From positions 1,472,001-1,536,000 of the forward strand of contig CAWBMP010000004.1 in the NCBI GenBank assembly GCA_963790025.1: DNA of 64,000 bases, written 5' to 3'. The notes below the pieces were generated by a model. It was not told the DNA's origin and searched no databases. It saw nothing but the letters and a program-made list of their open reading frames with translations. This DNA comes from Nitrospirota bacterium (GTDB lineage: Bacteria > Nitrospirota > Thermodesulfovibrionia > Thermodesulfovibrionales > Dissulfurispiraceae). The position numbers and the translations under genes are program-made. Every line of letters starts with the position of its first letter. Position 1 is the stretch's first letter. Shown piece after piece: positions 38,556 through 41,718 of the stretch.

Positions 38556-38629
38556 GGCGGTGTAGCTCAGCTGGTTAGAGCATGCGACTCATATTCGCAG
38601 TGTCCGGGGTTCGATTCCCTGCACCGCCA
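38556..38629 (+). tRNA. tRNA-Met(CAT), elongator type, CCA not encoded
   Basis: Acceptor GGCGGTG/CACCGCC (paired 1:72), anticodon arm TGCGA-CTCATAT-TCGCA, T-loop GGTTCGATTCC. Confidence 0.93.
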
Positions 38630-38899
38630 CTACCTTTTTGTTATGTCCGTGACCCCATAATTTGGCCGTTGCAAGTGTGGGGTTATTTATATAATAATTT
38701 AATATTTATAAAGTTATATCAATAAGATATAGACCTAATTAAATTGTTATATATAATAGCTCCCCGAACTTTACGGAACAAGCCGACGAAGCTATTTTCT
38801 TCAGACCGAAGCAATACCCGCGTTCTGCATTATTTTCACGCTTTTGGATTCCGAGGCTTGCCCTTTTAAATCCAACCGTACTAAGATTCTTACAACCCT

Positions 38900-39187
38900 A
38901 TGGGCGAATCAAATAATAAGGGCTGGTGTGTATACGTGCTCAAGTGCCGGAATAATTATCTGTACATTGGGATAACTAATGATCTTGCTGCCCGTATGAA
39001 AGCCCATGCAAATGGTACTGGCAGCAAGTTTGTGAGGGCTTGGAAGCCGTTTGAGCTTGTAAAGGTGCTATCATGTAGGGATGGCAGAGAGGCACGCAGT
39101 TTGGAGTACCAGTTAAAGAAGTTGAAGCGGATTAAAAAAATGTCGACTCTGGGCTTGACGGATAAGGAACAGCTGCATAAAGTTTAA
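38900..39187 (+). CDS. GIY-YIG nuclease (UPF0213/YhbQ-like)
   Basis: VYVLKC...YIGITNDL.AR..H..G.GSKF, E.QLK. Confidence 0.9.
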   Translation: MGESNNKGWCVYVLKCRNNYLYIGITNDLAARMKAHANGTGSKFVRAWKPFELVKVLSCRDGREARSLEYQLKKLKRIKKMSTLGLTDKEQLHKV

Positions 39188-39310
39188 CTCATCGTGCAAT
39201 AATAGGCAGTATGGGAACAGAAAAAATACTCGATTATTTGCCGGAATTTAATGATTAAATGCACATATGCAAGCCTGAACATCCCGCTGGAATTTTCAAT
39301 ATATTTTTTC

Positions 39311-40509
39311 TTATTTAGATAAGATGTACCCTCTGTTCTCCTTCAGCATCTTGAAAATAACACGGCAAAGATGACGACCAAGCGCACGTAGTGCCTGGTT
39401 ATGTTTCTTGCCTTCAGCTCTTTTTTTCTCATAATATTGTTGAGACTGCGGAACTTGTTTTCGGTGCCGATCTACGGCAACCATCATTGCGGCCTTAGCC
39501 CGAGTATTAACCTGCGTTGGTGGTTTTGATCCTTTTTGCTTGCCTGAACTATTGTCAAGATTCGCCATCCCAATATACAGAGCCAGACTTGCTTCGCTGC
39601 CAAAGCGCTCGATAGTTCCAATCTCTCCGGCGAGTTCAGATGTACAAATGGAACCGAATCCTGGAATGGTTGCGAGCGTTTGCGCAATATCCGAGCCGTG
39701 TGCAACACCCTCCATCTTTGCTTCAAGTGATTTTATCTTGGCATGGAGTTCCATCACGCGGATTGCATCTTCCTGGATCATTTCACCGACCCACTCGACG
39801 TCGTGACTAAACTGTGCTGTTTTCTGCCATTCAACAATAACAGAGGCATATTTCTTACCAATGCCCGGATCTTGCGGATAGTTGTTTCCCGCATGCGTGC
39901 AAGCGTGCGAAGGTCATCCGTGCTGGTCAGAAATCCAAGAAACCACATATTGTCGGCCTCACCGGTAATCTCCAGAAGTCCCGGACATACAGCGTGAAGA
40001 TCGGCCTGTAGGTTGTTTACTACCCGTACTCGCTCATCGACCAAACGACGCCGGCGCCGTGATAGCCGCTTTAGAATGTCGTTGTCCCGCGGCGTTTTGC
40101 GTACCTCCTGCAGCACATCCTTGGCTATCGGCAGATGATCTCGAAGCTGAAAAAGCTCCAGTCCTTTCCTTGCGTCGATTGCATCGGTCTTCGCGGCACC
40201 GGGGAATATCTCCTTGAATCGAGCAAGCTTGAGATTGTTGATATTGAAGAGGCGATAATTGCGGGCTCGAACGAGCGTGTCCAGCGGACGTGCGTAGCCG
40301 TTGAAGCCCTCCATTGCTACGGCAACGGGACAACTAAACCTTTGCTCCTGCTTCTCGATGCGACAGAAGAATTGCCGGAACCCTTCAGGTTCATGCACGA
40401 TTGAGAATTCATCGAGGACTTCACCGCTGGATAGGCCGATTGCAACGTTGTGACTGCGGCAGCCAATATCGACGCTTACACGCAGTTCGAGGGGATCATC
40501 TTTTTTCAT
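39311..40509 (-). pseudogene. IS110 recombinase with a one-base frameshift near 39865
   Basis: DEDD domain (VDIG, AMEG, KTDAIDA) and Tnp20 domain (TIPGFG, SSGK). Adding one C restores KIPGIG. Confidence 0.9.
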
Positions 40510-40519
40510 GTAGTCTCCT

Positions 40520-40725
40520 TTGCAGACAAGATTATCATCCTCAGGTCTCGTCTACTTACAGAGCCACATTTGGCACCATCCCGGTCGACCCTTTTGAGGA
40601 TGATGCAGATGACGGAGGCGGCATTTCAGACTCAAGTGAGCCTGAATGAACAGGCCACTGACCCCACAAGCCACACCCCCGTTAAGCATATCTTACATGA
40701 ATAAAGCTGCCATAGTCATCTGCAT
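40520..40725 (-). ncRNA. Putative IS110 bridge RNA
   Basis: About 230-nt non-coding end with two guide loops matching donor junction and target flank. Limits approximate. Confidence 0.7.
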
Positions 40726-40749
40726 AAATCCTATGGTAGACCCCCATGA

Positions 40750-41718
40750 ACCCTGCAAGGAGTCCGCAAACTTGTTTCGCTGTGGTTTTTTTATGAGGAC
40801 GTTCTCCGGCAGGTTGCTTCTATTAATTGCGGGGGCAACAAGACATTGCCGGCATATGGAGCGACGTGCAAACTTTGTCAGTGGCGGACTGTCTGCATCG
40901 ATGAGGTGAGCAAGGCAGAGGACCTGACGTTAATCCCGGAGCTGGGGCGGTCGAAACAGGATGACATGTTGCCATACATAAAAAACCTTTCGGACTTGGC
41001 TGATATCAATGTAGATTCTCTCGTTCAAGGTAAGAAAACCGTTATCCCTGGTGTCGGCCCGGCGACTTTGACAAAATTTCAGACCAGTGCCCGGCTGCAG
41101 TTGAACGGGTCCAGGCCATTTATCACGGAGCCGATAAGCTTCCTAAAAACCGAAAAGCAGCTTTTTTTTGATATCGAAACCGACCCTATGCGGGATATTT
41201 GTTATCTTCATGGGTTTACAGAGCGAAACAATGGGGATAGCAGCAAGGAAAAGTATTTTGCTTTCTTTGCTCTTGAGCCTACGCCGATGGAAGAAGAAAA
41301 GGCTTTTGCCGAGGCCTGGGAATATATCCGGGCTTCGCGGCCATGTTCTATTTATTATTATTCAAAATATGAGCGGACGATATGGAGGAAGCTTCAGAAA
41401 AAATATCCGCAGGTTGCAACGGAAGAAGAAGTAGAGGAGTTATTTTCTCAGGAACAGTCTGTTGATCTTTATTATGATGTTGTAAAGCCGAAAACTGAGT
41501 GGCCGACGCGGGATTATTCTATAAAAACTCTTGCAAAATATCTCGGGTTCTCATGGCGGGATGCGGACCCCTCCGGGGCCTCGTCGATAGAGTGGTATCA
41601 TAGGTGGGTAGAGTCCAAGGATGATTCTATTCGCAGGCGGATATTGGAATACAATGAGGATGACTGTATCGCCACGCGGGTTTTGCTGGATGGGATTATT
41701 GAGATGACGATGCGGTAA
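40750..41718 (+). pseudogene. TM0106-family RecB-like nuclease, 5'-truncated (HhH + RNase H-like domain remain)
   Basis: CKLCQWRTVC, IPGVGPAT, FFDIETDP, YSIKTLA, YNEDDC. Frame open to 40750 next to the IS110; N-terminal nuclease domain missing. Confidence 0.75.

Follow-up and report, generated by a model that had tools for sequence, protein, structure and literature searches.

A predicted bridge RNA and a putative TC core in an IS110-group element inserted in REP-like repeats of a Nitrospirota bacterium

Bridge recombinases are under development as programmable genome-rearrangement tools. To our knowledge, nearly all mechanistic work on them concerns IS621 and ISCro4 and a CT core. In the portions of the source papers available to us, IS621 and ISCro4 (IS622) are described as encoding a DEDD plus serine recombinase aimed at REP-type targets, together with a left-end RNA that has a 5′ target-binding loop and a 3′ donor-binding loop (PMC11208160, PMC11208158, 10.1101/2025.05.14.653916). 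Left guides have the sense of the top strand and right guides pair with that strand, discontiguously in the case of the right donor guide; a 2-nt core stands at both junctions, and the promoter is divided between a -35 in the right end and a -10 in the left end. For IS621, the two bases that follow each right-hand guide are reported to mismatch their cognate DNA and to pair with the other substrate after top-strand exchange (PMC11208158). Homing to REP sequences has been described both for IS621 (PMC11208160) and for ISPpu9 and ISPpu10 of Pseudomonas putida, which are IS110-family, multicopy and found at one position in REP or stem-loop sequence; for ISPpu10, a hairpin adjoining the target is reported to matter (PMC12288879, 10.64898/2026.03.19.712850). 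Other DEDD-family elements take as their target the inverted terminal repeats of a different mobile or repeat unit; such elements have the guide RNA in the right end and subterminal inverted repeats.

The element described here lies on the minus strand of a 64,000-nucleotide stretch of Nitrospirota DNA (the window, meaning the whole stretch that was analysed). From its sequence, it is predicted to share the traits of IS621 and ISCro4 listed above, including a handshake-type base after each right guide, and appears to behave like an IS621-type bridge system in every feature that can be tested on sequence. Very probably, this is an IS110-group element whose bridge RNA of ~195 nt, derived from a 229-nt left end, directs a circular form into REP-like heads of the type NNTGGGG-TC-AGGCTTG, with the crossover at TC. 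It is reminiscent of ISPpu9 and ISPpu10 in being multicopy and confined to one position of a repeat, although host, repeat and RNA are different; it also resembles the DEDD-family elements that home into the repeats of another unit, whereas its RNA lies in the left end. Since bridge RNAs of diverse structure have been predicted in 85.7% of IS110 elements (Durrant 2024, PMC11208160, in the portion available to us), we regard the element as a distant addition to the IS110 group and not as a new kind. The two outermost features are the following.

39277..40740, minus strand: whole element, including the TC at both junctions (six copies, junction alignment, empty sites)
39311..40509, minus strand: recombinase gene, split here into ORFs of 243 and 156 aa

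The 3.45-Mb genome (5 contigs) contained six full-length copies of this IS110-family insertion sequence, with 99-100% identity and only three variable columns within the element in the six-copy alignment. Two of these are substitutions that both set L005 and L006 apart from the remaining four copies; the third is a 1-nt indel near 39868. The base is missing from the window copy and from L003, leaving the window copy 1 nt shorter than the four intact copies (L002, L004, L005 and L006), all of which have an intact 399-aa ORF. In the window copy, one C has been lost from a C-run near 39866-39868; the ORF of L003 is likewise split into 243 and 156 aa. A public metagenome contig from run X1 (covering 39270-40743) carried the intact allele, with an additional base after 39866. 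Because of the frameshift, the window copy is predicted to be unable to make recombinase; its RNA and both ends are intact, so that mobilisation in trans by the four intact copies would be possible. The left end (40738-40510) is 229 nt long and the right end (39310-39279) 32 nt, and inspection of the six-copy junction alignment revealed no evident terminal inverted repeat in the aligned ends.

The preliminary description of this DNA had recognised an IS110 element with a frameshift. Both points were borne out by protein family matches and the split ORFs, the frameshift lying near 39866-39868. The window gene matched Pfam PF01548 (DEDD_Tnp_IS110) and PF02371 (Transposase_20), with E-values of 7.2e-21 and 1.2e-16 for an intact copy, which also scored 164.6 bits with NCBIfam NF033542 ("IS110 family RNA-guided transposase"), where the cut-off is 140. 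All 23 aligned relatives retain residues D14, E67, D109, D112 and S322, and the KTDxxDA and SG motifs align with those of IS621 and ISCro4, pointing to a RuvC-like DEDD domain and a Tnp domain with a catalytic serine. A phmmer search against PDB gave no match at E<=0.001, and at E<=10 only weak C-terminal matches to ISCro4 and IS621 (E=0.0034 and 0.0026). Relative to these two proteins the recombinase is thus distant (phmmer E=0.003, C-terminal domain only), and its 399 aa compare with chains of 328-341 aa. The same description had proposed an IS621 orthologue with a GT core; an IS110-group bridge system is what our data support, but the similarity to IS621 is distant and the core reads TC, as judged from the junctions and target halves below.

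40739..40740, minus strand: left copy of the TC core, at the LT-core-RD junction (empty sites, L007)
39277..39278, minus strand: right copy of the TC core, at the LD-core-RT junction (empty sites, L007)
40741..40753, minus strand: left half of the target, GGTTCATGGGGG (copy flanks, L007)
39256..39276, minus strand: right half of the REP-like target head, AGGCTTGCATATGTGCATTTA (empty sites, L007)

All six copies read ...GGG-TC-TACCAT at the left junction and ...GGGATGT-TC-AG(G/A)CTT at the right junction, the occupied site of the window being ...GGGGG-TC-TACCAT...GGGATGT-TC-AGGCTTG. The genome contained 16 empty sites with GGGTCAGGCTTG and none with GGGTTCAGGCTTG, while the looser pattern GGGTTCAG[AG]CTT occurred once, in a context unlike the repeat. 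An empty paralogue of the window's own site, L007 (36 nt), was found as a 27-nt match to the right flank; its first 15 nt, ending in TC, and the 21 nt that follow are identical to the left and right flanks of the window copy, respectively. In other genomes, the 1.2-kb flanks of related loci held seven empty heads that fit GGG-TC-A(A/G)G.C.T but no head with TTC. Subtracting the empty from the occupied site leaves the element plus one TC, and the shared dinucleotide is therefore TC. As judged from these comparisons, the crossover core is TC and insertion is site-specific, with a 2-nt core repeated at both junctions. This differs from IS621, whose core is CT and among whose close orthologues the T is described as almost invariant (PMC11208158, in the portion available to us).

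In the preliminary description, the core had been placed at GT, with joined ends CGGGAT-GT-CTACCAT and with ACGGGGGT (40682-40675) and CTGTTC as target guides. GT does occur at both junctions when the window copy is taken alone, and the window flank ATGGGGGT matches ACGGGGGT at 7 of 8 positions. However, this register needs an empty site GGGGGTTCAGG, which was found in none of the 16 REP-type heads of the genome and none of the seven in the flanks of relatives, and L007, the empty paralogue of the window's own site, has a single T. The other copies, against which the earlier boundaries were to be checked, agree with the empty sites on TC. We therefore consider the GT register almost certainly wrong, also in view of its proposed guides (see below). 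With TC as the core, the earlier boundaries are one base off.

The targets appear to be REP-like heads, GGGG-TC-AGGCTTGC..TGCATTTA, located beside a RAYT-like Y1 transposase gene. Empty heads occur in inverted pairs 560-2400 bp apart that flank a gene, and units of ~975 bp encode a protein of ~306-316 aa. This protein scored 59 bits with Pfam Y1_Tnp (PF01797; cut-off 23) and 76.9 bits with NF047646 REP_Tyr_transpos ("REP-associated tyrosine transposase"), the latter just below the cut-off of 80. At least two full copies of the Y1 transposase gene are present in the genome; more than one full gene copy is atypical for RAYTs. The insertion point falls between the G-run and the hairpin-forming part of the head, and all six copies occupy exactly this one position. 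Tandem duplications of the left half-site were observed beside many copies.

It could be argued that the element is immobile in this genome, that duplication or gene conversion of REP/RAYT-containing segments produced its six copies and that the RNA features are relics. Such a history would agree with the frameshift in two of the six copies and with the right flank of more than 60 nt that is identical in L003 and L004, which we ascribe to both copies occupying the same repeat type. Against it, the left flanks differ among the six copies and are distinct in five of them, those of L002 and L004 having only ~14 nt of repeat sequence in common, adjoining the junction. The three variable columns, the four intact ORFs and the shared position in the repeat head in six of six copies likewise speak against duplication, which we hold to be very unlikely, and we favour RNA-directed insertion into the heads.

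The ends of the element also suggest how the RNA would be expressed. A circle would read the right end (...CGGGATGT), then TC, then the left end (TACCAT...), and circularisation would set TTGAAA 17 nt upstream of TACCAT, switching on both the RNA and the recombinase gene from a promoter composed of two halves.

39294..39299, minus strand: TTGAAA, -35 half of the predicted junction promoter, 15 nt before the core (conserved at a fixed distance)
40733..40738, minus strand: TACCAT, right donor (RD) and -10 half of the predicted junction promoter (near-invariant)

Both hexamers are present on the minus strand as first reported (TTGAAA at 39299-39294, TACCAT at 40738-40733), and joining the ends would assemble the pair, but with the TC core the spacer would be 17 nt and not 16. 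TACCAT is invariant in 35 relatives except for C/T at one position. The right end is readable in 36 relatives, and in all of these but L053 a -35 of the form TTGNAA stands at exactly this distance (35 of 36, comprising 25 TTGAAA, 5 TTGCAA, 4 TTGTAA and 1 TTGATA). In the linear copy, a consensus scan found no promoter-like site upstream of the RNA. Circle-junction strings numbered 0 for the TC reading and 0 for the GT reading in the assembly, where circles are not expected. Assembled contigs of four public DNA runs (X1, X2, X3 and X5) likewise contained no joints.

The bridge RNA itself was examined through related loci. We fetched 71 of these, with protein identities of 49-91%, from metagenome-assembled genomes (MAGs) of many phyla, labelled Nitrospirota, Binatia, delta-, beta- and gamma-proteobacteria, Verrucomicrobiia and Acidobacteriota. 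After 30 truncated or very distant rows had been dropped, 41 near-full-length loci were kept, and the alignment was built from 35 distinct left ends. The stretch of 219 nt that follows the -10 had a fold z-score of -3.9. We propose a structure consisting of an outer helix, a small variable hairpin, a target module (basal helix, internal loop and apical hairpin) and a donor module (outer helix, GGUC/GACC helix, internal loop and apical hairpin), with the following predicted parts.

40530..40726, minus strand: predicted bridge RNA of ~195 nt, both ends putative (fold z-score, covariation)
40715..40723, minus strand: outer helix of the target module, 5′ strand GCAGAUGAC, partner 40605-40613 (helix 3, 5 of 5 pairs compensatory)
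40674..40682, minus strand: basal helix of the target loop, 5′ strand ACGGGGGUG, partner 40612-40620 (helix 5, 99% paired)
40640..40655, minus strand: apical hairpin of the target loop, GCCUG-UUCAUU-CAGGC (helix 6, 6 of 8 pairs compensatory)
40595..40604, minus strand: outer helix of the donor module, 5′ strand, partner 40534-40543 (helix 7)
40563..40574, minus strand: apical hairpin of the donor loop, GCCA-AAUG-UGGC, longer in some relatives (helix 9)

The 47 proposed pairs were 97.2% paired, compared with 91.9% in shuffled alignments (0 of 500 as high), and sliding the 3′ partners by 1 to 3 columns lowered this to 32-48%. Two-sided changes affected 23 pairs, against 10.7 expected (0 of 500 shuffles), and in helix 9 a C-G pair is replaced by U-A in three sequences. 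These compensatory changes in 35 relatives substantiate the earlier proposal of a bipartite bridge RNA in the long left end of an IS110-group element. The pairing of the donor outer helix with the downstream GGAUGAUG is the minimum-free-energy fold of the window's own sequence and was 94.7% paired in the alignment. RNAalifold, applied to the raw alignment, instead used the 5′ strand of the donor outer helix as the partner of the left donor guide, a pairing that we rejected for the two-module fold; its pairing of the left with the right target guide was also rejected, as it displayed no two-sided change. A scan of 39000-41000 against Rfam 15 (E<=1) matched no family. In contrast to IS621, the outer helix here is predicted to enclose the small variable hairpin as well as the target loop, forming a three-way junction.

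The donor loop contains two segments that would read the ends of the element.

40577..40583, minus strand: left donor guide CGGGAUG, same sense as the right-end CGGGATG at 39286-39280 (L053 covariation)
40550..40560, minus strand: right donor guide, UG, 3-nt bulge, GUAGA (40555-40551), followed by handshake C at 40550 (covariation)

In this arrangement, CGGGAUG would read the right end of the element and UG-bulge-GUAGA would read TC-TAC-CA of the left end. GUAGA is complementary to TC-TAC and, taken with UG, to TC-TAC-CA. Covariation of this guide is clean: in the 42 rows where both parts are readable, TCTAT is accompanied by AUAGA (5 rows) and TCTAC by GUAGA (37 rows) with 0 exceptions; the TCTAT/AUAGA lineages are L020, L021, L026, L033 and L053. 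RNAalifold independently paired the right-donor-guide columns (CG in 30 sequences, UA in 5). The invariant UG, separated from GUAGA by three variable bases, can pair with the CA after TAC to make the guide discontiguous; as both sides are invariant, this pairing is one that we infer. The bulge of 3 nt compares with 2 nt in IS621. The left donor guide varies in one lineage only, L053, where GGAAUG accompanies GGAATG. This guide fails to match two donor bases, the one preceding the core (a difference from IS621) and the second base of the core.

Most of the donor loop had been read correctly from the single copy. The strings CGGGATG (40583-40577), the hairpin (40574-40563) and GTAGAC (40555-40550) are all present on the minus strand, as is the GGTC/GACC stem (40590-40587 with 40547-40544), and the assignment of CGGGAUG and GUAGA as left and right donor guides is upheld by the matching guide change in five of five lineages with a changed donor. 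GTAGAC had been taken as the complement of the right donor GTCTAC. Its GUAGA does pair, but its terminal C stays unpaired, as the donor reads T-TC-TAC; GTAGAC was seen as a complement because GTCTAC is the left junction (target G, TC and TAC) and not the donor.

The target guides were assigned from covariation with the flanks, and appear to occupy the two strands of an internal loop.

40660..40666, minus strand: left target guide UGGGGUC, same sense as TGGGG-TC (flank covariation)
40625..40632, minus strand: right target guide AGUCUGA (40632-40626), then handshake A at 40625 (flank covariation)

UGGGGUC would read the left target in the same sense, while AGUCUGA would read the top strand of the core and the right target. 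AGUCUGA is complementary to TC-AGGCT with one G.U pair, while copy L006 and a 91%-identical relative, L008, have a flank, TC-AGACT, to which its complementarity is complete. We compared guides with flanks in 32 distinct guide/flank pairs from 40 loci. Over positions 3-8 of the right target guide, own pairs scored 3.97 and permuted pairs 3.11, and 0 of 10000 permutations were as high, bearing in mind that the permutations ignore the shared ancestry of elements and hosts. At positions 4-7, the own and cross values were 0.90/0.76, 0.77/0.50, 0.64/0.48 and 0.67/0.30. The difference vanishes beyond position 7, which gives a right target guide of 7 nt when the core is counted, compared with 4 in IS621. 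In several relatives (L010, L023, L036), this guide mismatches the actual flank at two or more positions. For the left target guide the own score was 5.11 and the permuted score 4.68 (1 of 10000 permutations, which again ignore shared ancestry), with a signal only at -7 and -8 (0.78 vs 0.58 and 0.38 vs 0.25). This signal is weak because GGGG-TC is nearly invariant in both the RNA and the target.

The target guides proposed with the GT register fared differently. ACGGGGGT is present at 40682-40675 but corresponds to the basal-helix strand ACGGGGGU, which pairs with CGCCUCCGU (40620-40612) at 99%, 6 of its 12 pairs being compensatory. Its match to the flank holds for the window copy, but the left flanks of the other five copies differ. 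When its covariation with the flanks was examined in 32 relatives, as the preliminary description had suggested, the own score was 4.88 against 4.89 for permuted pairs (6332 of 10000 as high), and at the 26 positions where relatives differ from ACGGGGGT the target shares the base in only 3. CTGTTC lies within the covarying apical hairpin (40655-40640). Covariation between guides and the DNA they would read thus upholds the donor guides (the left one in a single lineage), but moves both target guides to other segments, 40666-40660 and 40632-40626.

The bases that follow the right guides are suggestive of the handshake described for IS621. After the right target guide stands an invariant A, which mismatches the G before the target core. 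The donor core is preceded by a T, its pairing partner, in 37 of 42 rows and by an A in the other 5, with no compensating change at the handshake A, and hence there is no handshake covariation in these five relatives. After the right donor guide stands an invariant C, which mismatches the donor T and finds its partner in the G that all tabulated left flanks have just before the target core. The handshake A and C would each match the other substrate and not their own, and we infer that the arrangement is that of IS621.

Structured RNA upstream of a gene may also have a simpler role. The left end might be only a 5′ leader that regulates translation of the recombinase or the stability of its mRNA, with the protein itself picking the target. 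The structure does adjoin the Shine-Dalgarno sequence and start codon (40520-40507), and GGGG-TC is so conserved that recognition by protein is possible for that part. A leader, however, would not need a right donor guide that covaries with the element's own left tip in five of five lineages, nor a right target guide that covaries with the host flank (0 of 10000 permutations, shared ancestry ignored). Moreover, the protein family has been shown experimentally to be RNA-guided (PMC11208160, PMC11208158). We judge a leader function alone to be highly improbable, and a bridge RNA with guides for donor and target to be the better reading. The geometry with which we assigned these guides follows Durrant 2024 (PMC11208160) and Hiraizumi 2024 (PMC11208158), in the portions available to us.

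With its TC core and no clear similarity to the IS621 recombinase or RNA, the element would fall outside the narrow IS621 subgroup. A literature search for "IS110" together with "TC core" found no paper. In the supplementary files of Durrant 2024 available to us, the 12-nt donor-loop motif occurred once, in a seemingly unrelated sequence; the element may nevertheless have been tabulated before.

These findings carry a lesson for annotation: the guides of bridge RNAs are unreliable when read from a single copy, and here the empty sites and relatives corrected the core and both target guides. If our reading is true, the element would be a natural distant orthologue with a readable guide code, comprising a right target guide of 7 nt, a TC core and handshake bases A and C. 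It would widen the range of usable cores and provide a test of core recognition, with four intact copies and many natural targets in one genome. Tentatively, and as a possibility that we rate at somewhat below even, these loci may represent a widespread, so far undescribed clade of TC-core IS110 elements, in which the recombinase reads out the core differently and the tandem duplications of the left half-site could be scars of recombination. The different read-out would follow from a C at the core position where IS621-like elements have the near-invariant T. Homing to the boundary between GGGG-TC and the hairpin, such a clade would live as a specialised parasite on REP/RAYT systems in many phyla.

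The element in the window, at 39277..40740 on the minus strand, lies between a 95-aa ORF (38900-39187) and a 290-aa ORF at 40846-41718. Two features sit just beside the insertion:

38556-38630, plus strand: tRNA-Met gene with a CAT anticodon
38900-39187, plus strand: the 95-aa ORF, whose N-terminus we take, by eye, to be GIY-YIG-like

The left-end RNA region, predicted to encode the bridge RNA, shares 14 of its 93 short words with a stretch of Geotalea daltonii annotated as an integron cassette array. This stretch may hold a relative of the window's IS110 element.

Five related elements (right junctions of loci L016, L024, L028, L059 and L062) displayed an A in place of the T directly 5′ of the donor core, so that the junction reads GGGATGA-TC. 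Three of the five also differ on the target side: 3′ of the core, L016, L024 and L062 carry G or T (TC-GG.., TC-TG..), not A. The RNA shows no visible matching change.

The left half-site of the target (NNNN-GGGG-TC, or the bases just 5′ of it) was often found in tandem duplicate, directly upstream of occupied or empty heads:

L010, L023, L024, L028, L036, L039 and L041: left flanks of the elements
C5 near 56776: the window's own genome
L007:1460-1500: empty paralogue of the window's site, own genome

The left flank of L023, for example, contains two copies of GAAAGCTGGGGTC, and that of L028 two copies of a 15-nt unit. These duplications could be products of RAYT or IS110 strand-transfer chemistry; alternatively, they could simply reflect how repeat arrays are built.

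The window's genome encodes a second, different IS110-like ORF of 394 aa (N-terminus MIEVFVGIDVAKD...) on the minus strand of contig C2, at about 338600-339800; a REP-like head at C2:337735 lies within about 1 kb of it.

Inverted REP-like heads also occur in this genome on both sides of a RAYT-like Y1 transposase gene of about 306-316 aa. Units of this kind, counting an interrupted one and a deletion derivative, occupy four intervals:

C4:1215133-1216108 (L079): RAYT-like unit
C5:55801-56776: RAYT-like unit
C4:1209020-1211456 (L080): RAYT-like unit
C5:494855-495415: RAYT-like unit

One unit is split by a 432-aa ORF, and a single deletion derivative measures 560 bp. At least two full copies of the gene are present, near-identical to each other. 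Several copies per genome are unusual among RAYTs; this multiplicity suggests that the RAYT-like unit is itself mobile.
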